From NCBI GenBank assembly GCA_963699545.1, contig CAVOUE010000003.1, positions 32,001 through 96,000 on the forward strand: a stretch of 64,000 bases of DNA, read 5' to 3'. Numbering within the stretch: position 1 is the stretch's first letter; each line of letters starts with the position of its first letter. A program made the position numbers and the translations under genes. The notes under the pieces are model-generated. The model was not told the DNA's origin, searched no databases, and saw only the letters and a list, made by a program, of their open reading frames with translations. This document shows positions 9,286-43,051 of the stretch, piece by piece. This DNA comes from Nitrospirota bacterium. Lineage in GTDB: Bacteria; Nitrospirota; Thermodesulfovibrionia; Thermodesulfovibrionales; UBA9159.

Positions 9286-9966
9286 ATGATGAACGGGACA
9301 CTCCTCGGGAAGATTATGAGGAACATCAATGTGCTGAATGTGCTGCTTCTTGCACTGGTCATTGCTCTTGCCGCTTACATATTGCCTCCGGTCCTTAATG
9401 TAAGCGTTTCCTACACCCTGCCTGCTCAAAAAAAGGTCGCGCAACAGAAGGAAGTAATACCTGCTGTAGTGCAACCGCCGTCTGCTATGGAATACACAGT
9501 CATCAGTGAACAGAATCTCTTCCATCCCGAGAGGAAAATCTCTGCCGAGAAGAAAGACGAAAAGCCCTTGCCGAAACCGGAATTTGTTCTTTACGGTACT
9601 CTCATCACGAGCGATGAAAGCCTTGCCTTCATGGAAGACCGCAAGGCCCCACAGACAACCTCGGGCAGAGGGAAAAGACAGAGGACCCTCGGACTGGGAG
9701 GGACGTTTAGCGGTTATACCCTTAGCCGGATATACGAGGACCGGGTTATCATGGCAAGAGGCGAAGACAAAATTGAGGTAAGGGTCCACGACCTCTCGAA
9801 GACGAGGGGAGTTGCAGATACAACCCCGGGTCCAGATTCCGCGGTAGGAACTCCCGCCGCACCACGGAAACCGTCGGTACGAACACCCGCCACCGCATCA
9901 CGGCAAACTTCGGCGCCGGTTCCCCGCTCCCCCAGAAGGGTGCGACCAACTCCCTCTGAAGATTAA
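9286..9966 (+). CDS. type II secretion GspC-like protein (TM + HR domain, Pro-rich tail, no PDZ)
   Basis: Single N-terminal TM, NLFHPER, FVLYGTLI...AF, and GYTLSRIYEDRVIMARGEDKIEV typical of GspC/PilP-like HR domains. Confidence 0.7.
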   Translation: MMNGTLLGKIMRNINVLNVLLLALVIALAAYILPPVLNVSVSYTLPAQKKVAQQKEVIPAVVQPPSAMEYTVISEQNLFHPERKISAEKKDEKPLPKPEFVLYGTLITSDESLAFMEDRKAPQTTSGRGKRQRTLGLGGTFSGYTLSRIYEDRVIMARGEDKIEVRVHDLSKTRGVADTTPGPDSAVGTPAAPRKPSVRTPATASRQTSAPVPRSPRRVRPTPSED

Positions 9967-10254
9967 CGGTTTAGTGCCTTTTTTTCATAAGTCCCTTAAT
10001 TCCCCTTTGTCAGAGATTGGAGCTAGTGATACTTGCCCTGCAGCACAAAGATCCAATGTGAGAAAGCAAAAAGCCCTTAGAAGTTTATCGAAAGAGATAA
10101 TCTATCTTAACTTGCATCATAGTCTCCCATTTTGCAAAACGCCTTGCTATAGGATATGTCGTTGTGATACTCTACTCCTCAGGTGGATAATTGTCCGCAT
10201 GCTTTATACCCCATCGCAAGTAAAAAAACAGCTTAGAACCGCTTCCCTCTTCAC

Positions 10255-11349
10255 ATGAACTATACGATCGAACTCTTTCGCGGCATCGCAGCCTTCATGG
10301 TTCTGAACTCTCACTATGTCCGTTTCTTGAGCGAACAAAGGAATCTATTACATTTTCTATGGACTGGCGTGGACTTCTTTTTTGTTATCAGCGGGTTTGT
10401 TTTCGCCAGGACAATACTCTACAAAAATGCTCGTTTTATCCCGTATATCACAAGAAGGTTTTTCAGAATATACCCTCTCTATATCTGCTCACTCGCATTG
10501 TATTACTATATCACTCCTGGACATGCAGAAAAAACGACCTTCTTGCTCAAACATATCCTCTTTCTTCAGACCACCAGTTCACTTTCTGAAGCATTTTATT
10601 TCAACCCTGCCTACTGGAGTCTTCCGGTCGAGATGGAGTTCTATTTCTTTGTGCCACTCTTAGGCTGGTTATGCAAAAAATATGGAATTGTAATATTGTG
10701 GAGATCGCTTCCATTACTTCTGGGAATAAAGATCTTCCTGACGCTCAATAGCAATCCCCAGCCTGAGATGTTTAACGTATACAACAGCTTGAATATTCAT
10801 CTGCCCGGAAAGATTGTTGAATTTCTTGTCGGCATCTTCCTCTACAACGCCTTCGAACACTATTATGAAAGAAACCTTAATCCGGGGCAGCTGTTCGTCG
10901 TGTTCATGCTCGGTCTCATGATTATCCTTGGTCTCGGAATGGTCTTTGTAACCTACGGAGATGAGGGGATCAACAAGGTATTCCTTCTCAGAGCGATTCT
11001 TAACATAGCTTGTGCTGTCGGATATGGATTGATATTGTTCAGCTTCCTCTTTTTGTTCAAACAAAACCATCCAAAGATGCAATTAATAAGTACCTTCGCA
11101 GGAAACATAAGTTATGGTGTTTATCTTTTTCATAATTTGCTCCCTCTTGCACTCTTGAAGTTCAATGTCCCCGTGAGCGGGGTGTCCGCCTACTTCTCAT
11201 GCGTTATCGCTGTCATTATCCTTTCGCTTATTTTTCACTATTCCGTCGAGAACCCCTGTCGTCAGTTTGGAAGGTACTTATCAAAGAAGTATGAACTGCA
11301 TGCGGATAAGCAAAGTCGCGGGGACCACGATCATCCGCACCGGACTTAA
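10255..11349 (+). CDS. acyltransferase family 3 (OafA/YrhL-like) O-acyltransferase
   Basis: FRGIAAFMVLNSH, GVDFFFVISGF, RRFFRIYP, WSLPVEMEFY, GNISYGVYLFH and VENP motifs; polytopic membrane protein. Confidence 0.92.
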   Translation: MNYTIELFRGIAAFMVLNSHYVRFLSEQRNLLHFLWTGVDFFFVISGFVFARTILYKNARFIPYITRRFFRIYPLYICSLALYYYITPGHAEKTTFLLKHILFLQTTSSLSEAFYFNPAYWSLPVEMEFYFFVPLLGWLCKKYGIVILWRSLPLLLGIKIFLTLNSNPQPEMFNVYNSLNIHLPGKIVEFLVGIFLYNAFEHYYERNLNPGQLFVVFMLGLMIILGLGMVFVTYGDEGINKVFLLRAILNIACAVGYGLILFSFLFLFKQNHPKMQLISTFAGNISYGVYLFHNLLPLALLKFNVPVSGVSAYFSCVIAVIILSLIFHYSVENPCRQFGRYLSKKYELHADKQSRGDHDHPHRT

Positions 11350-11376
11350 CCCACGGTCGCTGCACCGAGCCCCCTC

Positions 11377-13045
11377 TTAGTAATCTATGGCGCTCCCGCC
11401 GCTCAATGCATCGACGAATTTCCTGAACCATCTGCCGTCTATAAAAAGATAGGTGTCTTCTACCACAACCTCCTTAGGAGGGATGGAGGTCTCTTTCCCC
11501 AGCACCATCATTTTCGGCACATCATAGTTGACCTTGATCTTTACCTCAGCCTCATTCCCCCTTATCTTCACCTCTTCGATGGAGTAACGGTGGTATACCA
11601 TCGGTCCTCTCTGGACGGCGTACACATCAAAGGGCATCTTCGACCTGTAGAACGGGTCATGTATCTCATACGTAACCTTCATGTCCTTTTTCAACATCCC
11701 CTTCCAGTAGGCATTCACCTTCTCTCTCAGTAATGCCTCTTTCTTCCTGAGACTGACACCCTTGTCCTTCCGGGATGCCATCTTCACCGCCTCATCCCAC
11801 TTCACGTGCATCATAATAAGATCAGCGAGATTTCTTTCATCGTTTCTGAACTGATGCCAGGCAAGATGAAAAGTCCCCTTTGTAAAGCCTATTCTCGGCC
11901 TGAGGGCAACAAACTTGCTGCTTGAAACAGCGATATCCCCGTCCATCCAGGTCTTTCCTCTGTCAGGAGAACAGCTTCATCCTTACCCCTGAACGTATGT
12001 CCCTTGAATCTTCCCATACCACTGCCACCTTGCGTCCGTCGACAGCCATCCTCGGAAGCCATGCCCTCGTGTTGTCGAATTCGCTCTTGTCGATCCTCTT
12101 TACGTCCCAGTTCATGCCCGCGTCCTCACTCACGGCAGCATAGATCCTCTGCTTGAACTTCCAGCGGTCCTCACCACTGAAAACAACGAGGACTCTGCCG
12201 TCTTCCCATTCGTGATGATCCATCCTCGCCACATCAAGGCCCTCAGCCTCTTTTACCCTGAAGGCCTTCCATAAGGCATCCTCCTTCACAAAGCCCTCAA
12301 GGGAAAATACCCCCTCGTGAGAGGTCTTGTAGAGCACGACCGGCTTTCCCTTTACGCTCCATCCCTCCATAAAAGAAACTCCTTCCACCTCTTTCAGCAC
12401 CACCGATCCCTTTTGTTCCAAAGAAACGGGGTCGACCGTCGTTGCCCGCACCTGTCCTTTATTTCCTTTCATGGCAAAATAGAAAAGGTGAAGCACGTCG
12501 TCCGTAACCACCACCACAGGATGGTAAAGAGATGACAATTCCTCCAACTGCAAGGGAACCCTTCTGAAGGTCTTCCCTTTGTCGGAAGAGAGATTCAGGA
12601 AGAGCTCAGGCTCTTTGCCGGAAGCATCGATGATGTAGAGATTCTCCTTGCTGTCTGCAAAAATTCTTACATTCGTCGCTTTTATCCCGGACGCCAATTC
12701 CGCGATGTCTCCGAAGGTCCTCCCATTGTCCCGGGACGCAGTGAACAGGACCTTGTTCCCTCCCGGACTCCTCTCTATCCATGCCATAAAGATGGAGGGC
12801 CCCGCAGCCCTGAGGGAAGGGCTCATTATCGTGACGCCCTTGCCTTTGCCTTCCCGCATCCTGAGAGGGTCCTTTCCTGTGCTCCACAGATACAGATCTC
12901 CGTCCTTGACATAGCAGACCCATTGAGAGGAAAGAAGCGGCTCGAGGGTGATATCGACAGAGCCCACCCTGACCTCAGCGGCCAGGGACCCTGCCTGAGA
13001 AAGCAAGAGAAACATGAGAAGAAGAAATCTCATTTGACGGTTCAT
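11377..13045 (-). CDS. exported BNR/Asp-box beta-propeller fused to a C-terminal small alpha/beta domain (frameshift at 11966-11972)
   Basis: Signal peptide and Asp-boxes SRDNGRTF, SSDKGKTF, SEDAGMNW. Removing one base in GGAGAAC joins ORFs 11963-13045 and 11377-11946 and creates a fourth box, SPDRGKTW. The C-terminal part is homologous to lipoprotein 26264-26720. Confidence 0.8.
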
Positions 13046-13232: not shown

Positions 13233-13283
13233 AAAAAAAAGAGAGGTACGGATTCCCTCTGTATCCAGAGAACCCGTACCTCT
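13233..13283 (-). terminator. rho-independent terminator after the 13316-14296 gene
   Basis: AGAGGTACGG...CTCTG-TATC-CAGAG...CCGTACCTCT stem-loop, followed on the minus strand by T8 (A run 13233-13240). Confidence 0.8.
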
Positions 13284-14519: not shown

Positions 14520-15239
14520 TTACGCAAACAGAGAAACAAGTCTTGCCGCCAGCGAGGAAGCAGAAGATCCTTTCCCCATGAGAATGAACCCCTCAGCATA
14601 TTTGATGTCCCTCGGCAACGTGGCGGTCCGGAACCTGTTGATCCCTTCGACCTTGGCGATATAATCGTTGTAGTATATCTCGGTAGAATAGGCCGCGATG
14701 GCCCTCTTCTTTTGCTCCATTTCTTCTGTTATGTCAACCAACACATTCGGGAAAAGCGCCATCAGCACCTCATAGAAAGCCAGAGGAATCTCACATTTCT
14801 TCCTCAATTCCCAAGCCAGTCTGAATGATGCCTTATGGTCCGGATGCGCTTCACAGGGAGAGGGCGCATAGAGTATCCCAGGTGAGAACGCCTCAACGAC
14901 GCGAAGCAATCTGTCAGCAGCATCGTGCTCCCTCAGAAAAAGTTCCCTGTCCGGATAGCCAAGGAATTGGTAGTCCGTAACGCCGAGTATCTCCATCGCC
15001 CTTTCAGCGGACTGTCTGCGCATCTTGACATATTCCTTGCCGAATCTTCCCTCGAAATCCCCCTTGTCGCCGTCTGTAAGGAAGACGACCTTTACCCTGC
15101 TTTTCGCTTTGACATGTCTGATAATAGAGCCCGCGCATCCCAGGGATTCGTCATCGGGATGGGGAGCGATGATCAGGGCATCCTCACGGGAAACATCCGT
15201 AACCGTGTAGGGGTAAATGTCAGATTCATTCTTATACAT
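14520..15239 (-). CDS. PIG-L/LmbE family N-deacetylase
   Basis: IAPHPDDESLG, R..E/S and HPDH motifs. Confidence 0.92.
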   Translation of the reverse strand: MYKNESDIYPYTVTDVSREDALIIAPHPDDESLGCAGSIIRHVKAKSRVKVVFLTDGDKGDFEGRFGKEYVKMRRQSAERAMEILGVTDYQFLGYPDRELFLREHDAADRLLRVVEAFSPGILYAPSPCEAHPDHKASFRLAWELRKKCEIPLAFYEVLMALFPNVLVDITEEMEQKKRAIAAYSTEIYYNDYIAKVEGINRFRTATLPRDIKYAEGFILMGKGSSASSLAARLVSLFA

Positions 15240-15247
15240 GGTATAAT
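15239..15247 (+). promoter_or_regulatory. extended -10 promoter candidate for the GNAT gene
   Basis: TG-G-TATAAT about 30 nt upstream of ATG 15279. Confidence 0.45.
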
Positions 15248-15278
15248 TTTAGCATATTTCATTCATCGCATTAACACT

Positions 15279-16226
15279 ATGCAGAGCGCGTCTTATCATA
15301 GGGTGAGAGATTATAAGAAAGGTGATGAGGAAGTCATTGCCGCCCTTTTCCGTGCGGTATTTGGAAAGGAGCTGTCAATAGAACAATGGAACTGGAAGTA
15401 TGCTGTACGCGGCAACGGGAACATTTATTCAAAAGTGGTCGAAGACGAAGTCGGGACGGTTATCGGTCACGCAGGAGCTATCCCCTTACAAGGCGTCATT
15501 GAGAACAGACCAGTTCAGTTTTTCCAGATAGCCGATGTGATGGTTCACCCGAAGGCACGTGGTTTCCTGGGAAAGAAAAATGTATTTGATGCTCTCATAA
15601 AGATATTGTTTGAGGATCTAAAAAGGGGGTTCCCCGACCTTTTCTGCTACGGCTTTCCGGGTGTACGTCCGTTCAGTCTCGGTAAAAGAGTGGGTGTCTA
15701 TGACGAGATCGAGCAGGCGGTTGATTGTACCCGCAATGTGAGACGCTCCCTCTTCACCACTTACCGGATAAAGAAGATGAGCTGGGATGATGCCCGATTG
15801 GACGACCTTTGGGTGAAGCGTTCAGACGATTTTACCCTGTCCCTTGTGAGGGATGGAGCTTATCTTCGCTGGAGGTATGGGACAAGCCCTTTTTTTTCGT
15901 ATCAACTCCTCGGATGCTTTCATTTTCGAAGGCTTACAGGATGGGCGGTAATCAGAGATACCGGGGAAGAAGTCCTTATCATCGACCTGCTTGCCGGAAA
16001 AGCCCGATACCGACATTTATTGAGAGCGCTCGAAAACTCTCTGGCCTCTGCAGGTAAAGAGACAATGCGCCTCTGGCTGCCCGCGAACCTGAGAAAGGGG
16101 CTCATCGGTTATGCAGAAGACAAGACGCAGGTGATCGTAACGAATATGATATGGAAACTCCCAGTCCGGACCTCCTTTGCAAAAGAACGTCTCTTCTATA
16201 CAATGGGCGACGCGGACATCTTTTGA
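15279..16226 (+). CDS. GNAT family N-acyltransferase (tandem GNAT folds)
   Basis: WNWKY..., DVMVHPKARG, YGFPG, VRDGAYLRWRY and terminal YTMGDADIF. The ORF-track start at 14925 overlaps PIG-L and is rejected. Confidence 0.8.
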   Translation: MQSASYHRVRDYKKGDEEVIAALFRAVFGKELSIEQWNWKYAVRGNGNIYSKVVEDEVGTVIGHAGAIPLQGVIENRPVQFFQIADVMVHPKARGFLGKKNVFDALIKILFEDLKRGFPDLFCYGFPGVRPFSLGKRVGVYDEIEQAVDCTRNVRRSLFTTYRIKKMSWDDARLDDLWVKRSDDFTLSLVRDGAYLRWRYGTSPFFSYQLLGCFHFRRLTGWAVIRDTGEEVLIIDLLAGKARYRHLLRALENSLASAGKETMRLWLPANLRKGLIGYAEDKTQVIVTNMIWKLPVRTSFAKERLFYTMGDADIF

Positions 16227-16376: not shown

Positions 16377-17544
16377 CTAACGAATTTCCCACCTGTTCTC
16401 AAAATAGCATACTCCAAGCTCTAACGTGTCCTTCACCACCTCGAAGGGGGGGATCACCTTCTCATGATATACCATGAGCCCTTTATCGTCGAAGACTCTC
16501 GCATGTGCATAATAGATACCACCCATAATGGGAGCATGGGGATACTCAATGATCACTTCTCTTCTCTTGCCGCATAAGGCAGGTTTGCCGGTGAGATGGG
16601 TTCCTGTGACATACACCCCTCTCCCGTTATCCATCTTGATCGAAAGTGTTATGTGATAGGGCAATGTATCGCTTACGCATTCCATGAGCAAACGAAACGT
16701 GATATCATCTCCTCTTCTCAGCGGAACTTTGTTCAGCAGCTCAAACTCGCCGATCACTGCAGGGCTGTCAGCGCCCGGAGAGGGGCTCTTGTCACTTCGC
16801 TTCTTTTCACGATCTTTATCGAGCTGGTAGAATTCATATGCAGGCACTACCTGCTCCGTATCCCCCATCATCTGCACCTTCCCGTCTTTTAGCCAGATTG
16901 CCTTATCGCACAAGATAGCCACCTGATAGGTACTGTGGGAGCAGAAGATTATCGTCATCCCTCTGCTCTTAAAGTCCGTGATACGGTCTATGCACTTTTT
17001 CTGGAAATGCATGTCACCGACGGAGAGCGCTTCGTCGACGATCAGGATGTCCGGTTCAAGGGATGAAATGAGAGAAAAGGCAAGTCTCATCTGCATACCC
17101 GTGGAATAGGTTTTGAGCGGTCTGTCAATAAACTCGCCCAGTTCTGAAAACTCGACAACCTCATCAAACTTTGACCGAACAAACGTCCTCGAGAAGCCGA
17201 GCATATCTCCGTAGAAAAAAATGTTATCCCTGCCGGTAAAATCGGGATGGAACCCTATCCCCAATTCCAAAAGAGCAAGAACTCTCCCCTCGACTCTTAT
17301 CTCTCCCGACGTAGGAGAACAGGGTGCCGGCAATAAGCTGAAGCAGGGTGCTCTTGCCGGCTCCGTTTTCGCCTATAATTCCGACCGTCTCGCCTTCGCG
17401 TATCAGAAAGCTCACGCTGTCCAGGGCGGCAAAATTAATATGCCGGTCACCTTTTACAAAAAATTCCTTAAACCGGTCGGCGCTCTTGCTGTAAAGCCTG
17501 TAGACCTTTGATAATCCGTTTACCCTCAGCACTTCCCTTGCCAT
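16377..17544 (-). CDS. wzt: polysaccharide ABC exporter ATPase with C-terminal Wzt_C-like domain (frameshift at 17314-17320)
   Basis: Walker [10 protein letters not shown] in ORF 17224-17544; [23 protein letters not shown] and SH in ORF 16377-17333. Removing one base gives GTLSPTSGEI. Confidence 0.9.
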
Positions 17545-17701: not shown

Positions 17702-18859
17702 TCACGTTCTCTCGATTATCCCGGAGAAAAAACGTTCGTATCTTTCCGCCATGGTGTTCACAGAGAACTCCTTCGCCCTCTCAAGGCCCTTCTCCGTTAT
17801 GCGCGCCCTCAGCGTGCTGTCATGCAAGAGGGTGCCGATCGCTTTGGCTAACCCCTCCTTGTCATCCATGGGCACCAGAAGGCCGTTTTTCCCGTGCGTG
17901 ATTATATCTCTCGGCCCGTAAGGACAGTCGGCCGCTATGACAGGGACACCGCACGCCATCGCTTCTATGATGACGTTGGCAAATCCTTCAAAAAGACAGG
18001 TGTGCACAAACAGATCACTTGCTGCCATGAATTTATACGGGTTCGTCTGATATCCTACAAAAAGAACGTCTTCCCCGATCCCGAGATCCTGGGCGAGCCG
18101 CAGGAGATTCTCTCTCTGGGCACCATCCCCTATGACTATGAGCTTCAGCGCATCATGCGTCCTGGCTTCAGAAAAGGCATGGAGCAAAAGGGGTAAATTT
18201 TTTTCGTGCTCGAGTCTTCCCGCAGTGGCAACGATGCGAAACCCGGGGGGGATGTCCAACGACACCCCTTCCTTCGCCTTCATCGCAATATCACCAGGAT
18301 CGACACTGTTCGGAATCACCGCAATATCCATTGGTGCAGCGCGGAAATGTCTTGTGCATTCTTCTTTCATCCCTGCGGAGGCAACTACCAGACCATCGGC
18401 ATGTTTGCAGAAAAATCCGAAGATTCGCTTCAGATATGCTTTTCTGAACACGTTGTGTTCGAAATGCCGTAAGTATTCAATGGACGGCCCCCTCGGACTG
18501 GCCACTACCTTCACATTCAGATTGTGGAATTGCTTTGCAAACACCAAAAGAGCGGCAGGGTAATGCATCATCCCGAAGGCGAGATCAGGTCTTTTCTCCT
18601 TCAGCAAGGCCGCCACCCTGTTCACGTCATGCACAAACCTCCCGATGGTATCAAACCACACGCCCACTCCCAACTCCTCGATCGCGAGAAACTCCTCCAT
18701 GTCCAGGTGCCGGAAATATTGAAACACCTCTCTGGATGTAACAAGACATATCCTGAACCTGCTCCTGTCCACTTCCTGCAAAAGGTTCAGAGAAGTCCGT
18801 TCGGCGCCTCCGAAGGTAAATGTCGGCAATAAATATAAGATCGTATATCTTTGCTTCAC
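17702..18859 (-). CDS. glycosyltransferase family 4
   Basis: GGAER, AGRLEHEKN and EGFANVIIEAMACG (EX7E) motifs. Confidence 0.92.
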   Translation of the reverse strand: MKQRYTILYLLPTFTFGGAERTSLNLLQEVDRSRFRICLVTSREVFQYFRHLDMEEFLAIEELGVGVWFDTIGRFVHDVNRVAALLKEKRPDLAFGMMHYPAALLVFAKQFHNLNVKVVASPRGPSIEYLRHFEHNVFRKAYLKRIFGFFCKHADGLVVASAGMKEECTRHFRAAPMDIAVIPNSVDPGDIAMKAKEGVSLDIPPGFRIVATAGRLEHEKNLPLLLHAFSEARTHDALKLIVIGDGAQRENLLRLAQDLGIGEDVLFVGYQTNPYKFMAASDLFVHTCLFEGFANVIIEAMACGVPVIAADCPYGPRDIITHGKNGLLVPMDDKEGLAKAIGTLLHDSTLRARITEKGLERAKEFSVNTMAERYERFFSGIIERT

Positions 18860-18886: not shown

Positions 18887-19669
18887 CTACAGTACGTCGG
18901 CGAATCCTTTCTTTAATTTCCTGAACACGTAAATCCCCCCGAACAATGCTGCCGCCGTCACGATAAAGAGATAGATCATGCTCCCCGTTTCAGGAGGCTT
19001 GTTATAAAGAATTGTGCTGTGATACGCCTCCGTCAGGGCAGTCACAGGACTCAACCGAATGAGGGTCGCAAACCTTTCAGGTACTGCTGTCATCGGATAC
19101 AGGATGGTAGACATGTAAAAGATTATCTGAAAGACCACTCCCAAAACCTGAAGGATGTCTCTGAGATAAACAGAGAGCGAAGCTAACAAGAGGGTCAACC
19201 CCGAGGTCAATAACACCTGAAGCGACAGCAGGACCACAATGAAAAATATCTGGAGGACAGAGATCTCTCCCTTCCACACGAAGAAGACGAGAAGAAAGAC
19301 GATGATGCCGACTCCGTGATGAATGAACGAGGACACCACGGAGGACAGAGGAAACAGCTCTGAGGGAAACATCAGTTTCTTGATGATATGTCTCCGCTCG
19401 ATGATCGAAGAGGCCCCCCTTTGCACGCCCTCCTGAAAGGCAAACCACGGGAGAAGTCCCGAGAGGAGAAAGGCGATAAAGGGAACGTCACCCTCTATCC
19501 TGATCTTCATAATGTGGGAAAACACGAACCAATAAAGGGCAATGAACATCAGTGGTTGGAGGAATGTCCAGAAGATTCCCATTACGGAACCCGCGTACCT
19601 CTCGGTGATGTCCCGTGAGAGCAGGGGGGGGAGAAGCCTGAAAAGTTTCTTGAACTTAGCGATCACCAT
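18887..19669 (-). CDS. wzm: polysaccharide ABC-2 exporter permease
   Basis: RDITERYAGSVMGIFWTFLQPL, RDILQV and terminal FADVL; six TM segments; start placed at ATG 19669. Confidence 0.9.
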   Translation of the reverse strand: MVIAKFKKLFRLLPPLLSRDITERYAGSVMGIFWTFLQPLMFIALYWFVFSHIMKIRIEGDVPFIAFLLSGLLPWFAFQEGVQRGASSIIERRHIIKKLMFPSELFPLSSVVSSFIHHGVGIIVFLLVFFVWKGEISVLQIFFIVVLLSLQVLLTSGLTLLLASLSVYLRDILQVLGVVFQIIFYMSTILYPMTAVPERFATLIRLSPVTALTEAYHSTILYNKPPETGSMIYLFIVTAAALFGGIYVFRKLKKGFADVL

Positions 19670-29808: not shown

Positions 29809-29847
29809 GCTTTTTTTTGCCGCTCAAACGTCGTCCTTTTCACAGTC

Positions 29848-32578: not shown

Positions 32579-32669
32579 GTCTTCCCTATGTGGTCCAATG
32601 AGCAAAGCAGATTGTGCACTCATCGTGTGCATAGCAACCCGTTTTGGGCTTATCTCTCAGTCTTCGCAT
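32572..32669. repeat. 98-bp direct repeat copy A (orphan duplicate of the radical SAM gene 3' end + RBS + next ATG)
   Basis: 89/98 identical to 35107-35204 by manual alignment. Confidence 0.92.
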
Positions 32670-32682
32670 GACCGTGATAATC

Positions 32683-33750: not shown

Positions 33751-33806
33751 TACGTTACCTGCTCAACAATCCTGTAAAAGTCCCGCATTTCAAGCGCAAT
33801 TGTGCC

Positions 33807-34949
33807 TCATGCGGTTTCAATGGCGCCCGTCATTATCGCCGCTGCAATACGCTCAGCGGCATGGCCGTCCCATAGCGGCGGTATCTGTCCCTGTTTCCCA
33901 CCGTCAGTCAGGATCCGCCTGACCTCAAACCGAAGGCGCTCCATATCGTGGCCAACCAGGGTATTCGTTCCCAGGGTCATTGTGACCGGTCGCTCGGTAT
34001 TCTCCCGCAAGGTCAGGCAAGGTACACCCATATAGGTGGTTTCCTCCTGGATACCACCTGAATCCGTAATCACAAAGGTAGCATATCGCTGCAGGGCCAG
34101 GAAATCCAAATAACCGAGAGGGCCGACAAAATACAACTGCGAACCGCCGGTAGTAAATTGCAAACCCTCCAACTTCTGACGCGTACGAGGGTGGAGAGGA
34201 AAGATCAGCGGCACGTCGCGGCTGATGTCGCTCAGGGCATCCATGATCCGGGTGAAGAGAACGGGACTGTCTACGTTAGATGGGCGGTGCAGCGTCACTA
34301 TCCCATAGTGTTTGCACCCGAGATCAAAACATTCGTCTCTCTGAGCTGTATTCAAGACAGAAAGGGTGGCTCCTGAACATTGGATGGGCCAATGTGTCAA
34401 CGCCTTGGGCAATAGGCGCACGAGGGTATCAATCATCACGTTGCCAACGAGATGGATCTTCTCCAGAGCCACTCCTTCACGGAGCAGATTTTCATCGCCG
34501 TCCGTGGACGGAGTGAAAAGCAGGTCTGCGATCCGGTCAGTGACGAGGCGATTGACTTCCTCGGGCATGGCGCGGTCGAAAGAGCGTAGCCCTGCTTCAA
34601 CATGTCCAACGGAGATTAATAGCTTGGCACACACCAACGCAGCCGCCATTGTAGAGTTTACATCGCCGTAAACCAGTACCAGGTCCGGCTTGCGCTCCAA
34701 CACAACCGGTTCAAAGCGGCTCATAATCTCGGCTGTCTGCCGAGCGTGGCTGCCTGACCCAACTGCCAGGTTGACGTCTGGTTGGGGCATGTCCAGTTGC
34801 AGGAGGAAAACGTCAGACATGTCGGCATCGTAGTGCTGGCCGGTTTGGACAAGTGTCTGACGAATGCCGGCGCAGCAGGCCACGGCTTGCATCACCGGAG
34901 CAGCCTTCATGAAGTTGGGGCGAGCTCCCACTACGTGAAGGATATGCAT
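33807..34949 (-). CDS. wecB: UDP-N-acetylglucosamine 2-epimerase (non-hydrolysing)
   Basis: VGARPNFMK, TGQHYD, GDVNST, HVEAGLRS, TLHRPSNVD, TDSGGIQEE and LRENTERP motifs. Confidence 0.95.
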   Translation of the reverse strand: MHILHVVGARPNFMKAAPVMQAVACCAGIRQTLVQTGQHYDADMSDVFLLQLDMPQPDVNLAVGSGSHARQTAEIMSRFEPVVLERKPDLVLVYGDVNSTMAAALVCAKLLISVGHVEAGLRSFDRAMPEEVNRLVTDRIADLLFTPSTDGDENLLREGVALEKIHLVGNVMIDTLVRLLPKALTHWPIQCSGATLSVLNTAQRDECFDLGCKHYGIVTLHRPSNVDSPVLFTRIMDALSDISRDVPLIFPLHPRTRQKLEGLQFTTGGSQLYFVGPLGYLDFLALQRYATFVITDSGGIQEETTYMGVPCLTLRENTERPVTMTLGTNTLVGHDMERLRFEVRRILTDGGKQGQIPPLWDGHAAERIAAAIMTGAIETA

Positions 34950-35106
34950 AGGCAATCTATGAAATCAGGTTCGTTACGATTCACAAACTCACATTCCTCG
35001 GTCTGCTGATTCATTCCCTCTTGCCTGCCGGCCTGTGTGAATACCGCTGCGATGAAATTTTCGGCACACGCCTCTGCCGGCCATCCACTGTGCAAGGCGT
35101 CCAGGC

Positions 35107-35204
35107 CTGTCATGTCTTCCCTATTTGGCCCAATGAGCAAAACAGGTTTTACACTCATCGTGTGCATAGCAACCCGCCTTGAGCTTATCTCTCAGTCTTC
35201 GCAT
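35107..35204. repeat. 98-bp direct repeat copy B (native 3' end of the GT2-radical SAM gene)
   Basis: Matches 32572-32669. Confidence 0.92.
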
Positions 35205-36926
35205 CTCTGGTGAATTAAAAGGGTCTTCTTCCTTGAAAATATTGCCAAAACGAGTATCCGGCTGAATCTTCCTCTGACAACCGCCGATGTTTCCGTCACC
35301 GTCAAGGTTGATGACATCATTATAGGAGTTACAATGTAGTTTGGGGTCATCAAGATCCACATAGTATGGTTTCAATGCGACATACTTTCTGTTCTCACAC
35401 AGCTCATCGATTCTCCCGATAATGTCTCTGTCTTTCACCGTGATGATCTTGCGAGTCTCCTCTTCATTCATGGGGTCATAAACCAGATAATTGAGCAGAT
35501 GGACAAACCGGGGGTTCAGACTGTCACAGACTGACAGTATTTTATCCAGTGACGTGTAAGTCTCTCTATTAACTATATAGCTGAACCCCACATTCTTGTA
35601 CCGCTCTTTTAGTACGATGAAATTACCCATTACCTGATCAAAGACCGGGACACCGCAATAAGCAGCGTAACTCTCATTATCAAACCCATACAAGCTTATG
35701 GAAATATAATCCGGAGCGAACTGCAATGAAAGGAGTTTGTCGAGATGTGTTCCATTGGTTATTATTCCGACGTATTTCATCTTCATTTTCAGGAAATCTA
35801 CGATGCGGACAAAATCAGAACAGAGTGTCGGCTCGCCAAATCCGGCTATACAATAACTGCTCACCGAAGGATATAATGATACCATCCTTTGCACGGTATC
35901 GAGTTTCATTTCCTTCACTCTCTTGACGCCTACCGCCTGCCTGCTGCAGCCGCCGCACCTCAGATTACATGTGTCTGTCATGTATAACGTGCAACTCCGG
36001 GGCGCCGATTTCTTTTGCAGCAGAGCAATGGGATTAAGCAGAGATACCCTGAGGAAATTGAGCAGACCTACTATTTGAAAGAAATAAAGAATACCTTTAT
36101 CGACCATTCTACTCAGAGCACTATCTGCCTGCACCATCTTTCTTGACTGCATAAAGGCCCAGAGCTTCCATTTGCTCTGCAACGTCACACCATGTTTTTC
36201 CTTTATCCGTTCAAATGACCGCTCTATACTGCCAATGTCATATCTCGCCAACACAGCCTTCCTGTCTCCCTCTTGCTTAATCCGCCTGTGCTCATGATAC
36301 AACTCGATATCCCCTATAAGCTTTGCCCTTACAGGTTCCCCCTTGACGATCCCCCTGATCGCAAACTCATAGTCCTCTACCCCGACGAACATCTGATCAT
36401 CATATAACCCGAGACGCTCTAAAAGTCTTCTGTTCACAAATGACGCCCCGCCGGGGAAACTGTTCGTTTCTCCATCAATACTGTCCTTAAACTTGACCTC
36501 ATCGCCTGCAAGGGCGAATGCATGAAAGGTGAGATAGCATTTTTCATGTACGCTGTATACCCTTGGTATAAATGCTTCAACTGTCCCGTTATGCTCTATA
36601 TGCTGCCTTATCCTCTCAACCCAGTCATTTGTTCTGATAGTAATGTCATTATCGACAAAGAGGAGCCACTCCTCCGTGCTTTCAGAGATTATGCGGTTCC
36701 TCCCGACACCGACACCGAGGTTGATAGCTGAATCGATTATCCTCACCTGTCCATACTGAGCACAGAATTCCTGCAACCCCTTTCGTGCAGGCTGTGACGA
36801 ACCATTGTTCAATACGTACAGGGGGACGCCGGAGGGAAGAAAACTGCTGATGCACTCAATGGTCTGTTCGAGTTTCTCATAAAAAAGGATGCATACCGCC
36901 AAATCTATGCCTGATGTGTGCCTCAC
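35121..36926 (-). CDS. GT2 glycosyltransferase fused to a radical SAM + SPASM/twitch-like domain
   Basis: N-terminal GT2 (NNGS, LFVDND, GVED); CNLRCGGC (CxxxCxxC), GFGEPTL and TNG; C-terminal C...GNIGGCQ...GNI...CKTC. Confidence 0.88.
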   Translation of the reverse strand: MRHTSGIDLAVCILFYEKLEQTIECISSFLPSGVPLYVLNNGSSQPARKGLQEFCAQYGQVRIIDSAINLGVGVGRNRIISESTEEWLLFVDNDITIRTNDWVERIRQHIEHNGTVEAFIPRVYSVHEKCYLTFHAFALAGDEVKFKDSIDGETNSFPGGASFVNRRLLERLGLYDDQMFVGVEDYEFAIRGIVKGEPVRAKLIGDIELYHEHRRIKQEGDRKAVLARYDIGSIERSFERIKEKHGVTLQSKWKLWAFMQSRKMVQADSALSRMVDKGILYFFQIVGLLNFLRVSLLNPIALLQKKSAPRSCTLYMTDTCNLRCGGCSRQAVGVKRVKEMKLDTVQRMVSLYPSVSSYCIAGFGEPTLCSDFVRIVDFLKMKMKYVGIITNGTHLDKLLSLQFAPDYISISLYGFDNESYAAYCGVPVFDQVMGNFIVLKERYKNVGFSYIVNRETYTSLDKILSVCDSLNPRFVHLLNYLVYDPMNEEETRKIITVKDRDIIGRIDELCENRKYVALKPYYVDLDDPKLHCNSYNDVINLDGDGNIGGCQRKIQPDTRFGNIFKEEDPFNSPEMRRLRDKLKAGCYAHDECKTCFAHWAK

Positions 36927-36934
36927 CTCAGTTA

Positions 36935-38070
36935 TTATACCTCACCTGATGCATGCTCTTTCCCTCTTTCAGCAACCCCGGTGAGAAATCGTTCATAGTC
37001 TTTCGCGATCCTCTCCCAGGTAAATCCCTGCATGAACTTCTTCCCCCTTCGCCCCATCTCCTTCCGTTCATCGTTTGTCACCAGATCTTTCATGGACCGA
37101 GCCAGGGAAAGGACGTTCTCCCGTCTTGAACGACAACCCTGCACCATTGTCTCTCACAAAACCAAATTCCGGAATATCGCTTACGATGACCGCCTTGCCG
37201 CAGGCCATCGCCTCAAGGGCAGCTAAGGGTTGGACCTCGTGGCGCGAAGGAAATACACAAGCCAGCGCACGTCGTATAACCTCCACCTTCTTCTCGCCCG
37301 TAACCCATCCCAGCAACTCGATGTTCTCCCTTATCTCGTACGGTAATGCCGCACGTTTGGCCTTGAATGCCTCTCTGTCCCTCCCGTCTCCCGCGATGAC
37401 CAAGGTGATTTCCGGGAACGATGCATAAAATTCTTTGTATGCGTCTATGAGAAGATCCAGCCCCTTTCCATACATGTCTATCCTCCCAAGATAAAGGATG
37501 TATTCACCGTCATCAGGGGTCGCATCCAATAATTCATGTGACACACCGTTGGGAATAACCTCAGAGTGTCTTCCGCTTCCCAGAGAGAGTTTCCTTGCAG
37601 TTCTCCGAACTTACGAAGATGAAATGGCGATAGAACCTGGGTCTCAGAAATTCCAGAAGAGAGAGGGCGAACGCATAGAGGAGATTGTATTTTCTAAAAT
37701 ATAACTGTCCCGTGTATCCCTGTATCTGCAAAACGATGGGTTTCTCTGTAAAGGCATGCAAAAACGTCGGGATCGCAGGAGAAAATTCCTCGACGATCAC
37801 ATCATATTCATCACCGTGCCTTTTAACAAATTGTGCTGCATGATAGGCGTATGTGAGCAAGGTTACGGTAAGGTCCCTGCTCTCTTTTCCCACAAATATG
37901 TGTCTTAATCCTTCTCGTTCTCCATCTCTGGCCCCAGGATACTTCTTGCATAAAAGCGTTATGGTATGCCGGTCCTGCAGGTGCTTATAAATCTCGTACG
38001 CCCGTGTGCCGACACCGCCGATTCCAAAATAATCGCCCTCACTCTCATAGAGGAGATGAAGGATCCTCAT
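36935..38070 (-). CDS. glycosyltransferase family 4 (two apparent frameshifts, at 37600-37606 and 37115-37121)
   Basis: Three ORF pieces colinear with paralog 30091-31227. Removing one A from GGAGAAC at each site restores SSETARK...VIPNG and FKTGDVLSLA. Confidence 0.87.
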
Positions 38071-38161
38071 CCCTTTTCCTGCGCCGCCCTTTCACATGAT
38101 TTGATAATGCTCTCCGCTCCCTTCGGTGTTGCCGTAGTGGACCTTTACAGGCAGTGATGTC

Positions 38162-38908
38162 TCACGCGCCCGCTTTCATATCAGATTGCTGTGTCTCGTA
38201 CTCGGAAATGACCTCAGCCGCGTCGCCGATCATCTTTATCGATCCGTGATCCAGCCACAAGACCCTTTTGCAGAGATTCCTCACTTCTTCCATATTATGT
38301 GACACAAAGAGTATGGTAATCCCCCTGTTCCTGAATTCCAATATTCTCTCTTTGCTCTTTTCCTTAAAATGAGCATCTCCCACTGCAAGGACCTCGTCCA
38401 CCATCAGGATATCAGGGTCAATTTCTGTCGCGATGGAAAAGCCCAGGCGAGCGATCATTCCCGACGAATAACTCTTCAGGGGCGAATCAATGAAATCTTC
38501 CAGCTCGGCAAATGTTACGATACTCTCGTATTTGTCGGCAATCTCCCTCCGGGAAAATCCGAGTATGGACGCGTTGAGATAAATATTTTCCCTCCCGGTG
38601 AGCTCATAGTCGAACCCGGCGCTCAGTTCAATCAAGGGGGCTATCTTCCCCTGCACCCTTACGCTCCCCGAAGGCACAATCACTCCTGATATGACCTTCA
38701 GAAGGGTACTTTTGCCGGCGCCATTGTGCCCGATGATTCCCAGCGATTCTCCGTCAGCGATATCCAGCGATATATCCCTCAGTGCCAGGAAGGGCCGGGT
38801 CTGAAGCCGCTTGCCCTTGAGATAACGAATGATATATTCCTGGAACGTGCTTCGCCGCGATTCACTGATGAGCCTATACAGAACCGAAACATCCCGGAGC
38901 GTTATCAT
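38162..38908 (-). CDS. wzt: polysaccharide ABC exporter ATPase, short form without a C-terminal domain
   Basis: GHNGAGKST, YSSGMIARLGF, DEVLAVGD and VSH motifs. Confidence 0.92.
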   Translation of the reverse strand: MITLRDVSVLYRLISESRRSTFQEYIIRYLKGKRLQTRPFLALRDISLDIADGESLGIIGHNGAGKSTLLKVISGVIVPSGSVRVQGKIAPLIELSAGFDYELTGRENIYLNASILGFSRREIADKYESIVTFAELEDFIDSPLKSYSSGMIARLGFSIATEIDPDILMVDEVLAVGDAHFKEKSKERILEFRNRGITILFVSHNMEEVRNLCKRVLWLDHGSIKMIGDAAEVISEYETQQSDMKAGA

Positions 38909-38921
38909 GATCCCGTCATCC

Positions 38922-39707
38922 TCAGAGATAGAAAAGTATTCTGTCCTTATTCCGGTAATAGATACTCCACCCGATCAAGAATGAGGCAACGGCAAAGACA
39001 GCACCCAGAGCAAAATGCTCCGTCTTGGGGAGAGTAGCATCGTAAAGACAGGCCCTGAAGAGGGTTATGTAATGGTACAATGGATTCAACGACATAAAGA
39101 TCTGGACCTTTTGGGGAAGGATGGAGAGTGGATAAAATATCGCTGAGAAGTACATCCACGCCATCAATAAGACATCGTAGATATAGATCACGTCGTGAAA
39201 AAAAACAGCAAGGGTAGAAACGGCCAGGACAATGCCCAGAGCGAACATGAAGATGAGGCCAACAACAAAAGGAAGCCACAGCATGCTATAACTGAGATGC
39301 GTGCCTGAAACGATGATAATGACGGAGAGGGGGATAAGGGCAAACATAAAATGTACGAAGGAAGATGCCACTATAGAGATAGGAAAGATCGATTTGGGGA
39401 GATACAACTTATTGATAAGAGCACGGTTCGAAATAAAGGCTATTGAACCAATCTTGGTCCCTTGAGAAAAAAACTGCCACATGGTGATGCCTGACATAAC
39501 ATACGCAGTATAATTCCCCACACTCGCTCCAAAAAGTCCGGAAAATACAGCATAAAAGATCGTCATCATCAAGAGAGGGTCGAGCATGACCCAGAGGAAG
39601 CCGAGAGCAGATCGTTTATATCTTTTTTTGATATCCATTAAGACAAGGTTCCTTAACAGTTCCTTGTATTGTATGATCTCCCCGGCTTCTTTAAAACTTT
39701 TCACCAT
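38922..39707 (-). CDS. wzm: polysaccharide ABC-2 exporter permease
   Basis: DIKKRYKRSALGFLWVMLDPL, FHDV and LNPL motifs; six TM segments. Confidence 0.92.
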   Translation of the reverse strand: MVKSFKEAGEIIQYKELLRNLVLMDIKKRYKRSALGFLWVMLDPLLMMTIFYAVFSGLFGASVGNYTAYVMSGITMWQFFSQGTKIGSIAFISNRALINKLYLPKSIFPISIVASSFVHFMFALIPLSVIIIVSGTHLSYSMLWLPFVVGLIFMFALGIVLAVSTLAVFFHDVIYIYDVLLMAWMYFSAIFYPLSILPQKVQIFMSLNPLYHYITLFRACLYDATLPKTEHFALGAVFAVASFLIGWSIYYRNKDRILFYL

Positions 39708-39773
39708 GCCCTTTACCTTATCGCATATAAGATACTATAATTAACAATAATTGTAAAAGGACGCCGGAAAGAG

Positions 39774-40475
39774 TTGAAATCTTGCTTGATAATTATCCCT
39801 GCATACAATGAAGAAGGGGATATCGCGAGCGTTATCGGGGATGTGAAAGACAGCAACCCCGGGGCCGATATTCTGGTCGTGAACGACGGCTCCACCGACA
39901 CCACATCCGGGATAGCGAGAAAGGCAGGCGTCATGGTGCTGGACATCCCCTTCAATATAGGGTACGGCGGCGCAGTCCAGACAGGTTTCCGGTTCGCTGT
40001 GGAGCGCGGATATGATTTTGTCATTACCATAGACGGCGATGCCCAGCATGACCCGTACTCCGCACGGAATCTGATAGAGGCCATGGAGCGTGAGCAGGCG
40101 GACGTCGTCATAGGGTCCCGTTTTATTGAAGGAACGTACAGGATGGGTGTTATACGGAAGATCGGCGTGCGGCTGTTTTCCCTGATAGCCCGTCTCTATA
40201 CCGGAACGAACTTTACCGACCCCACATCCGGCTTTCAGCTTCTCAACAAAAGGGTTTTCTCCCATCTCTCCAAGGATGATAACTATCCTCTTGATTATCC
40301 GGATGTGAACATCATCATGGCCCTTCATAAGATGAGGGCGAAGGTGGTAGAGGCTCCAGTTACCATGAAGGAAAAACCACGAGGCAAATCGATGCACGCC
40401 GGACTGCGGCCTGTGATATATATTGTGAGGATGTCCCTGGCAATCATTATGGTCCTGGTGCGTAAGGAGGATTAA
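39774..40475 (+). CDS. DPM1-like GT2, probable polyprenyl-phosphate sugar synthase
   Basis: IPAYNEE, VNDGSTD, IDGDAQHDP, GSRF and DPTSGF motifs. Confidence 0.88.
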   Translation: MKSCLIIIPAYNEEGDIASVIGDVKDSNPGADILVVNDGSTDTTSGIARKAGVMVLDIPFNIGYGGAVQTGFRFAVERGYDFVITIDGDAQHDPYSARNLIEAMEREQADVVIGSRFIEGTYRMGVIRKIGVRLFSLIARLYTGTNFTDPTSGFQLLNKRVFSHLSKDDNYPLDYPDVNIIMALHKMRAKVVEAPVTMKEKPRGKSMHAGLRPVIYIVRMSLAIIMVLVRKED

Positions 40476-40477
40476 GA

Positions 40478-40834
40478 ATGACGTTGAGCATACGGCTGTT
40501 CATTTTTATCATGGGTATTTTTTTGTTCATAACGATCCTTGAACTTGCAAGGAGAAGAAGATTCAGGGAGGAACTTTCCATCGTCTGGCTCCTTACCGGT
40601 CTTGGACTGATTCTCAGTTCCTTTGCTGATCTCATCATAGACCCTCTGGCCTTTAAGCTCGGGTTGAGTTATCCGCCGGCGCTGGTTTTTATGATTACCT
40701 TTTTCCTTTTTGTTCTCGTGATCCTTTATTTTTCAGTTGCGGTGTCGGATCTGAAAAGCAGGAACAAGGAATTAAGCCAGAAGATAGCCTTGATGGAATA
40801 TAAACTCGGCACGCTCTATAAGGAAAAAGAGTGA
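40478..40834 (+). CDS. DUF2304-family small membrane protein
   Basis: Three TM segments, LGLSYPP and C-terminal L.QKIAL; the usual partner directly downstream of a DPM1-like GT2. Confidence 0.82.
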   Translation: MTLSIRLFIFIMGIFLFITILELARRRRFREELSIVWLLTGLGLILSSFADLIIDPLAFKLGLSYPPALVFMITFFLFVLVILYFSVAVSDLKSRNKELSQKIALMEYKLGTLYKEKE

Positions 40835-40901
40835 CCGACCTCTCCTGTCAGTAGTCCATGCGTAATGCGATGTGGGCCGATGTGTCGATCGTCACAAAGG
40901 G

Positions 40902-43051
40902 CTATTCCTTCTTGAAACCACCCTTACCCGAGCCGCCTTCTTTCCCTTTCTGGCTCCTCTCCATGAACTCATCGATCTCTTTGTCCTTGGTATAGCCCTT
41001 ATACTTGTCGACGTAATCGGACGTCACTGAACCGGCATCCTGAACGCTCTTGATGACATGGGGCGTCAGAAGCATGATGAGTTCGGCCCGTGTGGTATTG
41101 TCAGTCGTTGTGCCGAACAGATTTCCCAAAGAGGGATCTTGCTCAGATAAGGGATTCCATCCTTTGCTTTCGTGACATCCTCCCTTATGAGCCCTGCAAT
41201 AACGATCGTCTCACCGTCCTGAGCCACAAGGTTCGTGGTGGCCTCCGTCTTGTTGATCGACGCAAAGGCCTCTCCGGCGATGTTGACGTCCGCCCCCTGA
41301 GATGAAACCTCCTGGGTGACTTCGAGAGAGATCAGCCCGCTGTCATTTATCTGCGGCTTCACTTTCAATATAATCCCTATATCTTTATACTGGATCGTAG
41401 AGGTAGTTGTATTCGTTATTGTAGTACCGCTGGATAATGGCGAGGTCGTAGAGGAAGTTGCAAGGGGGATCTGTTGCCCTACCTGAATCTTCGCCTCACG
41501 GTTATCCAACACCAGGATGTGCGGCGCCGCAAGGATCTTGGCCTTTGACTCCTGAGCAAGGGCTGTGATGACCGCCCTGATCCTGTTCTTTGAGTCGGTC
41601 CCTACGAAGGTAAACCCCTGGGCGGGCAATTTTGTCGTGTCGAGCCCCTGGGGATTGACCGCTATATCTCCTGCAAGATTGATCGGGTTTACAAAAGGCT
41701 TTATGCCCGATATATTCACATCGGTACTGAACGCCCATGAGAACCCGAAGCTCAGGTTGTCGGTGATATCCACCCTGGCAAGCAGGGCCTCGATGACCAC
41801 CTGCCTGGGCAGTACATCGATCTTCTTTATCGTCTCCTCAATGAAGGCATAATCAGCGGGCGTCGAGAGGATCACCAGAGTATTGTTGTTTTCATCGGCA
41901 AAGATGCGGGTATCGGGTGAGACGAGAAATCCGCTTCCTCCGGAAACTGTGGAACCCGTCCTGGCAGGCTGAGGGGCAGGTTGAGATGCAGCCGGAGCCG
42001 TACCTCCGGCCGCTGCCGCTGCCGGCCTTGGCGCTGCTGGCACCGGAGCTGTGGAGACTCCGCCGCCCCCTCCAAGAATGGACTGGAGTATTGACGACAC
42101 AGGGCCTGCCTTGCTGTTCTGGAGGGGATACACCATGACCTTTGGTCTCGCCTCCGCGAACATACCGTCAAATGCTCCCACCCATCTTCTGATGTACTCC
42201 ATCTGTTCTTTTGTTGAGGTAATAGCCAGCAGGGCGTTGAGACGCTGTATGGGCAGTACCTTGACGGTTCCTCCCTGCACATTGAGCCCGATGGCGTTCT
42301 CGATATCCGGCAGGGCTTCCTTAAGATTCACATTCTTGAACGCGAAGAGTTCAAGCGCCACCTTGCCGGGATCCTTGCCCACCTGGGAATATACAAGCTC
42401 CTTGGAAACCTCGGTCAAAGGAACGATCCGGTACATCCCCTTCTCTTCAACAAAGCCTATGCCGTTTATTCTCAGGATCGTTTCCATCACCGGCAGCACT
42501 TCTTCCCTGGGAATAGGCGTGACCGTCCTGAAGTTCACCTTGCCTTTGACCTTGGCGTCGATAAGATAGTTCACCTTGAGGATGTCGCCGAATACCGTCT
42601 GAACTACTTCAAAGATGTCGGCATCATCGAAGAAGAAGCTCACCGGACCGCCTCCCAGCTGCTGGCGGGGCGCCTGCTTCGCCGCCTGTCCCCTTTTGGG
42701 TCCACCAGGTGCCGTCTGCTTTAGCTCAGGCTTCCCCGGTCCTTCCGGTTTGGTTCCCGGCGGGGGTAATTTCTCTGCTGCCGGCGGCGCACCTTCAGAT
42801 GGTCCGGGAGGCATCGCCTCGGCCGGCTTGACCTCATCCGGTTTCATCTCCGGCCTTTCCAAGGGAACTCCCTCTGTCGGAGGGGGAGCCGACTGCTGAG
42901 CCTGAGCAAACAATCCTGCATCCTGGGCGGAAGGCTTCAAAACAGGCTTCACACCGGCGACCGCGTCTGTATCAAGAGAAGGAATGACACATAGTGATGC
43001 AAGGACCGAGGCCAAAAGAAATGCTGTACGCACACCGCGCAACGTCTTCAA
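40902..43051 (-). CDS. gspD: type II secretion secretin GspD (frameshift near 41128)
   Basis: N0 domain (FFDDADI.EV...GKVNF), IDVLPRQVVIEA, APHILVLDNREAKIQVG, QYKDIGIILKVKPQIN and DGETIVIAGLI. Adding one T gives SKIPLLGNLF...ELIMLLTPHVI. Confidence 0.92.

Follow-up and report, generated by a model that had tools for sequence, protein, structure and literature searches.

A conserved gene pair encoding a secreted protein and its predicted propeller partner, duplicated in an envelope-glycan region of a Nitrospirota bacterium: a candidate surface coat

In Aeromonas, the surface-layer (S-layer) protein VapA/AhsA is exported with the secretin SpsD, and in archaea the adjacent genes of SlaA and SlaB encode an outer sheet protein and the membrane-tethered partner that holds it. 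Here we analysed a stretch of 64,000 nucleotides (the window; G000:C3:32001-96000) from a Nitrospirota genome of 3.04 Mb, 87% complete in 13 contigs, and we describe in it a gene pair that is comparable in part with these systems. The pair consists of a gene for a secreted protein of a family that we call sec and a gene for a BNR propeller associated with a small domain, and it occurs twice, as modules 1 and 2 with sec1 and sec2, on either side of a set of glycan genes and of three genes resembling the eukaryotic TMTC proteins (Table 1). The original prediction had read this whole region as a single pathway that exports, assembles and glycosylates a major surface protein, an interpretation that our results support in part.

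The likeness of sec to VapA/AhsA and to NpdA of the Comamonadaceae, drawn by description only, is that of a Sec-dependent protein without conserved domains, a surface-layer protein or, for sec, a candidate one, which is encoded beside type II secretion system (T2SS) genes. The passages on NpdA in PMC10765051 and PMC3110197 place its gene next to 12 gsp genes and describe the assembly of its lattice as dependent on lipopolysaccharide (LPS). Unlike the sec module, the VapA/AhsA and NpdA systems are not known to have a gene for a propeller partner. With SlaA/SlaB the comparison is an analogy only; folds and domain of life differ, and the tether would here be a propeller with an NTF2-like domain or a lipoprotein. 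S-layer glycan (slg) and O-antigen clusters of the Wzm/Wzt type share with the window an ATP-binding cassette (ABC) transporter glycan set with a Wzt_C domain, which here too adjoins a candidate surface protein, but no O-oligosaccharyltransferase of the WsaB/PglL type (Wzy_C) was found among the genes scanned. Literature searches, which did not extend to supplementary files, found no description of the sec/propeller pair.

The two secreted proteins are paralogs (33% identity, E 3e-23) rich in threonine, serine and glycine, as had been predicted. These three residues make up 31% of sec1 and 29% of sec2, compared with 18% in 12 other proteins of the window, and both proteins carry signal peptides cut just ahead of a conserved ADT(V/I)LFP motif. 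No sequence match to sec was obtained in Pfam, NCBIfam or the PDB, the PDB profile search was empty, and no Pfam family was shared among 83 members of the sec family (0/83). The family amounts to 196 representative clusters at E ≤0.001 among 1.84 billion, its named matches are all labelled 'hypothetical', and its members closest to the window proteins come from Nitrospirota metagenome-assembled genomes (MAGs; Thermodesulfovibrionales and Dissulfurispiraceae). A profile search for homologs of the sec2 type returned 39 matches, all unnamed or hypothetical and none from NpdA-bearing genera. A third sec paralog, located elsewhere on the same contig (G000:C3:666415-667397; L004:10401-11400), carries an in-frame TAG that interrupts it, and a propeller gene is missing beside it; its neighbour encodes an IPTL-CTERM sorting motif, and genes for Cas1, Cas4, Cas3 and Cas7 lie about 4 kb away.

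Comparison of 34 window proteins with 25 related loci by tblastn placed a propeller gene directly 3' of sec in 19/25 loci, which belong to Nitrospirota, Chromatiaceae and Methylococcaceae, with the small domain following the propeller in 18 of these 19. In one of them, L020, the adjacent matches are sec, propeller and small domain, and the carriers of the pair include cultured Thiorhodococcus, Allochromatium, Thiocystis, Lamprobacter, Thiobaca and Imhoffiella. The distance matrices of sec and propeller proteins from 16 loci were strongly correlated (Mantel r 0.95, a value inflated by shared ancestry; 0/5000 permutations as high), which argues that the pair moves as a unit. Outside Nitrospirota its flanks are unrelated (RecBCD, nrdD, miaB-phoH-ybeY, a P-type ATPase, peptidase U32, integrases), and transposase and toxin genes are also found near it in gammaproteobacterial loci. 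In a Dissulfurispiraceae MAG (L024:8857-9921), an integrase-core (rve) gene stands directly upstream of sec, a position that hints at mobility of the module. Within Nitrospirota the surroundings are more constant: in L020, L022, L023 and L024 sec is adjoined by Wzt, Wzm, PIG-L and glycosyltransferase family 4 (GT4) genes in the order Wzt, Wzm, PIG-L, GT4, sec, and in L020 and L023, as in the window, both module types flank this set.

The original prediction had expected the remaining genes to be conserved neighbours too, and here it did not hold. A TMTC-like gene is near the module in 1/25 loci (L022 only), T2SS genes stand beside it in 3/25 loci in addition to the window, and outside Nitrospirota the pair is alone among unrelated genes rather than part of a conserved ensemble. 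These results support a real and conserved functional pairing of the propeller/small-domain protein with the secreted protein; judged from sequence comparison, the conserved unit is a self-contained two-gene module that has been passed between phyla and is present twice in the window.

Each sec gene had been described as followed by a terminator, a BNR propeller gene and a small-domain gene. All of these parts are present, except that the small gene of module 1 proved to be a frameshift piece of BNR1, with the shifted frame of the window giving LSPDRGKTWMD, which matches L020, and with single-ORF (open reading frame) relatives of 553-604 aa. The propellers of modules 1 and 2 share 27% identity and their small domains 33%. 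Propeller and small domain form one protein in 5/5 Nitrospirota type-1 loci and in those gammaproteobacterial loci that were checked, whereas 3/3 Nitrospirota type-2 modules (window, L020, L023) encode the small domain as a lipoprotein of its own; such alternation between fusion and separation among genomes points to physical association of the two. BNR_2 matched 18/18 members of the partner family, an Asp-box propeller, and a PDB sequence search returned Asp-box matches only, while SnoaL_2 gave a faint match in 1/18 members (E 0.008). The partner model (predicted local distance difference test, pLDDT, 88.8) consists of a propeller (residues 22-413), a region of helices and a sheet of four strands (414-539), and a tail that is disordered, and the protein looks in it like an exported 7- or 8-bladed BNR propeller with a helix-plus-sheet domain, NTF2-like in appearance. 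The best whole-domain Foldseek matches of the propeller include sialidases (probability 1.00), sortilin, GH145 BT3686 (template modelling, TM, score to target 0.60), PL42 and ulvan lyases, and VIA-align ranked generic protein-binding propellers at the top (WD40 domains, BamB; Z 20-23). Among the invariant columns of 18 partner sequences the propeller has no Tyr, and R349 is its sole invariant Arg, so that a sialidase-type catalytic set is not evident.

For sec, we modelled the homolog of L020, which is 58% identical to sec1. The model (pLDDT 90.2, predicted TM score 0.87) is all-beta and folds into two beta-sandwich domains, neither an enzyme nor an outer-membrane barrel, in agreement with the original prediction. 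In VIA-align the N-domain (residues 21-172) superposed on TM1070 (PDB 1nc7) with Z 10.2 and a root mean square deviation of 3.0 over 106 of 116 residues, a match that stands above its others, and the C-domain (183-300) gave a CE2 beta-sandwich (Z 6.6), ASRT (Z 6.5) and carbohydrate-binding modules (CBMs; Z 5-6). Foldseek found no real match for the sec model (TM ≤0.21, probability ≤0.44). According to PMC2739507, ASRT/TM1070 domains are predicted to bind sugar, and secreted dyads of them with links to glycosyltransferases are predicted to bind surface polysaccharide. Any likeness of sec to this superfamily of eight-stranded beta-sandwiches (ASRAH) would be one of fold, with no match at the sequence level; the conserved His/Cys signature of ASRAH is not seen in sec, whose domains are larger and contain insertions. 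On these models, sec is predicted to be an exported protein with neither enzyme nor barrel fold, probably composed of two beta-sandwiches of the ASRT/TM1070 and CBM type and thus a putative glycan binder.

The complex of sec with its partner was predicted with ESMFold2 from alignments of our own making, in three runs and with three controls. The interaction score ipSAE reached 0.86, 0.80 and 0.88 (median 0.86) against 0.00 for the best control; the mark for this score is reached by 58/80 solved complexes and 2/110 mismatched pairs, a calibration that is only rough for our own alignments. The runs had at least 68% of contacts in common, with a partner pLDDT of at least 86. In the modelled interface, sec helix 262-275 contacts the face of the propeller that carries the invariant D269 and S288, and the C-terminal small domain and tail of the partner also contact sec. 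Recall of a known complex is unlikely because neither protein has a solved relative by sequence. The models therefore support binding of sec to its propeller partner.

The genes named by the original prediction were all found with the ORF listing and the Pfam and NCBIfam scans of the window, including the three multi-pass/TPR (tetratricopeptide repeat) genes and the Wzm, GT4 and Wzt genes between the two modules. An ABC-2 permease and an ATPase with a Wzt_C domain together mark the Wzm/Wzt exporter. The envelope-glycan supercluster that holds both modules exceeds 50 kb, and the module has been duplicated within it in this lineage; the product of the cluster could equally be LPS O-antigen or capsule. 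Its genes include, past gspD, a GHMP kinase and a nucleotidyltransferase. Two unusual fusions were seen in the cluster, one of a GT2 glycosyltransferase to a radical SAM domain (35121-36926) and one in a single ORF of 1459 aa with WbsX, GT4 and two GT2 domains (46878-51257). Further on, at 54963-59832, a GtrB-like GT2 with a GtrA membrane domain has PMT_2-type GT-C proteins on both sides; the GtrB-like polyprenyl-phosphate sugar synthase itself occupies 56096-57166, and this set is predicted to make and use lipid-phosphate sugars separately from the TMTC-like genes.

The original prediction had also placed the region between an orphan gspC and an orphan gspD and had proposed a dedicated S-layer secretin. 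Both genes are there, but gspD is no boundary, with glycan genes running on to base 64000, and the dedicated secretin was not borne out. The GspC-like gene scored 22-29 bits against NCBIfam equivalog GspC models, far below their cut-offs of 101-200, and has homologs 40-41% identical that adjoin the module in L024 and L025; GspD scored 330.9 bits against TIGR02517, below the cut-off of 351 (351.35). In a whole-genome search with PF00263 this GspD was the sole secretin found in the 87%-complete genome, with no extra copy, in contrast to the Aeromonas SpsD type. Contig C6 carries a gspE-F-pseudopilin-K-L-M operon without D or C, and gspG is found alone on C10. Given one secretin and a C6 operon that lacks gspC and gspD, the two genes of the window appear to be the missing parts of a single general T2SS. 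Elsewhere, a gspF-pseudopilin-J-K-L-M-gspC operon in L024 converges on and abuts the partner gene, gspC is near the module in L025, and a Competibacteraceae MAG (L043, 5013-11281) has the order gspM, gspD, GT41/TPR (OGT-like) glycosyltransferase, sec2-like gene, on a contig that ends before a propeller gene could appear. By its gene order, L043 connects the sec family independently with a secretin and a TPR glycosyltransferase.

A crude hydropathy scan gave 8, 10 and 11 hydrophobic segments for the three TMTC-like proteins, each of which has a DD motif after the first transmembrane segment (FVNWDDD, FVDYDDQ and WALDDV). By hhalign, the third N-domain shows homology to the family that includes the other two (98.9%, E 3.9e-17). 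The two PMT_2 proteins of the window, compared with the N-domain family as single-sequence templates, gave <1% probability, as did the negative controls. According to PMC7801869, TMTCs conserve a DD motif in their first extracytoplasmic loop; a stretch of human TMTC3 quoted there is similar to the segment LLFGIHPVHVE of the window proteins. The likeness to the eukaryotic O-mannosyltransferases TMTC1-4 (GT-C) comprises the multi-pass N-domain, which has 11 transmembrane segments in TMTCs, the first-loop DD, the HP.H.E segment and a C-terminal TPR region facing away from the cytoplasm. In contrast to TMTC1-4, the DUF1736 loop was not detected (PF08409; no match in the N-domains at E up to 10, nor at these genes genome-wide), and the bacterial family is very large. 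PMT_2 did not match the TMTC-like genes, and a PDB sequence search with the N-domain returned nothing. The family is greatly expanded in this genome, where 20 matching stretches were read as about 16 genes, located mostly on contig C2 at about 11-57 kb and also on C4 at 185-190 kb and on C3 at 337 kb. The database holds at least 5979 homologs, and among 120 homologs listed, 6 carry the JGI label 'protein O-mannosyl-transferase'. With a family of this size in genome and database, adjacency to sec is weak evidence of a shared pathway, and glycosylation of sec by the TMTC-like enzymes is weakly supported by sequence.

In the account that we favour, and to which we assign a probability of roughly 40%, the conserved two-gene module provides a glycan-binding surface coat in which sec, exported by the T2SS, is held by its propeller partner. 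The propeller face and the small domain would clamp one sec molecule, and the complex would be tethered at the outer membrane. The sec beta-sandwiches would bind an envelope glycan, here the polymer of the adjoining Wzm/Wzt cluster, and the glycan-bound complex would constitute a surface coat, which could be an S-layer and might form a lattice. Export across the outer membrane would proceed through the single general T2SS of the organism, with gspC and gspD encoded in this region. On sequence and models, an S-layer or surface-coat role of sec is plausible; the likely site of action of the module is the cell surface, and its export may proceed through the T2SS. The expression signals of sec2 would fit an abundant protein: promoter-like sites, ribosome-binding site and terminator are strong by sequence, the promoter-like sites being near-consensus tandem duplicates of the TTGACA-N17-TATAAT type, 51 nt apart, with a 5' leader of about 200 nt after them. 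The sec1 terminator is strong as well, comparable terminators lie 3' of sec in 5 gammaproteobacterial loci, and sec is probably abundant. For 11300-16300 no RNA run was listed, and the only runs found were four of DNA with small shares.

Several observations weigh against this account. The family is rare, being present in 8/401 sampled genomes of the phylum and in 0/4 of the same family, and the identity of 45% between sec of Nitrospirota and of gammaproteobacteria is high for an S-layer protein. Five loci (L029, L031, L033, L034, L035) have sec without a propeller gene despite room for one. Conservation at the modelled interface is no higher than in the rest of either protein (propeller protein, 0.49 vs 0.50; sec, 0.49 vs 0.53), and a 1:1 clamp fits poorly with the terminator that separates the two genes, from which more sec than partner would be expected. 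The Z values of 5-7 obtained for the sec C-domain are in a range that VIA-align itself calls common, and the best Foldseek matches of the propeller have glycan-cleaving enzymes among them. As for export, 3 of the 4 loci with linked T2SS genes are close kin. A more far-reaching version of the favoured account would make the pair an undescribed, horizontally mobile two-component coat of diderm bacteria, in which a T2SS-exported, lectin-like sec docks by its conserved helix on a propeller/NTF2 (lipo)protein anchor and binds the Wzm/Wzt glycan, as a new class of S-layer common to sulfur-cycling Nitrospirota and purple sulfur bacteria; we consider it doubtful.

Exopolysaccharide clusters often encode a trimming enzyme, and the pair might accordingly be a secreted or periplasmic two-subunit enzyme for polysaccharide processing, with the propeller as hydrolase or lyase and sec as carbohydrate-binding subunit, which trims the polymer of the cluster or feeds on environmental glycans. 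The sialidases, GH145 BT3686, PL42 and ulvan lyases among the propeller matches would fit, as would the similarity of both sec domains to CBM or sugar-binding sandwiches. The propeller, however, has no invariant Tyr and one invariant Arg, VIA-align favours generic protein-binding propellers, and the modelled sec helix 262-275 occupies the conserved face, with D269, S288 and K296, where a substrate would bind; most host loci have no glycan genes, and a structural protein would be the better fit to a monocistronic gene with three strong promoters in tandem. We regard such an enzyme as somewhat unlikely. Less likely again is a coincidental placement, in which the pair, an accessory island that is mobile and serves some other function, would have inserted at two places in a variable glycan region, with gspC and gspD as scattered housekeeping T2SS genes. 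Its patchy spread over 8/401 genomes, the 45% identity between phyla, the unrelated gammaproteobacterial flanks with integrases, transposase and toxin genes, the integrase-core gene of L024 and a G+C content that ranges from 44% to 52% across the region all suit this possibility. It is opposed by the gene order Wzt, Wzm, PIG-L, GT4, sec, which four Nitrospirota loci share, by the presence of both module types on the flanks of this set in L020, L023 and the window, and by the recurrence of T2SS genes in the unrelated gammaproteobacterium L043.

The least probable of the readings considered is the original prediction taken in full, in which an S-layer is built of sec proteins that the three TMTC-like enzymes O-glycosylate from lipid-phosphate sugars, with a Wzm/Wzt glycan, assembly by the BNR and small-domain proteins and export by dedicated gspC and gspD. 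The genes are all adjacent, the sec proteins are Ser/Thr-rich, and the DD motif, the LLFGIHPVHVE segment and the O-mannosyl-transferase label of 6 of the 120 listed homologs agree with such enzymes, as does the GtrB-like synthase in the window; the L022 cluster holds a TMTC-like gene, and in L043 the GT41/TPR glycosyltransferase lies between gspD and the sec2-like gene. Nevertheless, TMTC-like genes are near the module in that single locus of 25 and belong to a family of about 16 genes in the genome and at least 5979 homologs in the database, without a DUF1736 match in the window proteins, while gammaproteobacterial loci carry the module without any glycan genes, and the secretin is the only one of the genome, with the remaining T2SS genes on contigs C6 and C10.

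Several genes of the window contain breaks. Besides the 1-nt frameshift in the BNR1/small1 gene (near 11965-11975), there are frameshifts in the C-terminal part of small2 (about 26330-26345), in the first Wzt gene (about 17330-17350) and in a GT4 gene (37544-37561), and the C-terminal end of GspD is in another reading frame after a break at about 41130; outside the window, gspE on contig C6 (G000:C6:431964-433115) is interrupted by a single-base break. Because they are so dense, single-base breaks in otherwise intact genes suggest indel errors of the assembly rather than gene decay, two causes that are not distinguishable here.

Table 1. Coordinates of the features of the window, counted from its first base
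Feature	Position	Strand	Details
GspC-like protein, 226 aa	9286..9966	+	One N-terminal transmembrane segment; PF11356 E 1.4e-7, 31.8 bits vs cut-off 27
Acyltransferase_3 family membrane protein	10255..11349	+	PF01757 E 8e-27
Module 1 partner, BNR propeller with C-terminal small domain	11377..13045	-	One gene broken by 1-nt frameshift
Intrinsic terminator 3' of sec1	13242..13283	-	17-pair stem with 8 GC pairs, then T8
sec1, secreted protein, 326 aa	13316..14296	-	Mature form 301 aa, 31.8 kDa, isoelectric point (pI) 4.4; ATG start, GAAGGGG ribosome-binding site
PIG-L family deacetylase	14520..15239	-	PF02585 E 3e-29; kept as neighbour in L020, L022, L023, L024
GNAT-domain protein	14925..16226	+	PF13527; homologs in L020, L024
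Wzt ABC ATPase with Wzt_C domain	16377..17544	-	Frameshifted
GT4 glycosyltransferase	17702..18859	-	Homologs 50-58% identical directly upstream of sec1-type genes in L020-L023
Wzm ABC-2 permease	18887..19894	-	
Three TMTC-like genes	19734-21770, 21775-24033, 24034-26325	-	N-terminal multi-pass domain and C-terminal TPR; TPR Pfam matches
small2, separate lipoprotein form of small domain	26256..26720	-	C-terminal part frameshifted
BNR2 propeller	26717..28186	-	BNR_2 E 6e-15; true start probably 28072 (MELLRKG...)
Intrinsic terminator 3' of sec2	28150..28195 (about)	-	Perfect GC-rich hairpin, then TTTTT
sec2, secreted paralog, 423 aa	28231..29502	-	Mature form 41.6 kDa, pI 4.3; GTG start, AAAGGAGG ribosome-binding site
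Three tandem sigma-70 promoter-like sites 5' of sec2	29729..29876	-	12/12, 11/12 and 11/12 consensus matches
Further glycan genes	30091..40834	-	GT4, pyruvyl transferase, WecB, GT2-radical SAM, split GT4, Wzt2, Wzm2; DUF2304 on +
GspD secretin	41066..43051	-	Secretin, Secretin_N and N0 domains; last part of secretin domain in other frame

Taken together, what is conserved is a unit of two genes and not a pathway of about 20. The families of sec and of its partner are both uncharacterised, and they are confidently modelled as a heterodimer; since the pair is present in cultured purple sulfur bacteria, this prediction is directly testable. If the pair does form a surface coat, it would represent a new architecture and a new anchoring mode for Gram-negative surface layers, and a gene pair of sediment Nitrospirota would thereby gain its first known function.

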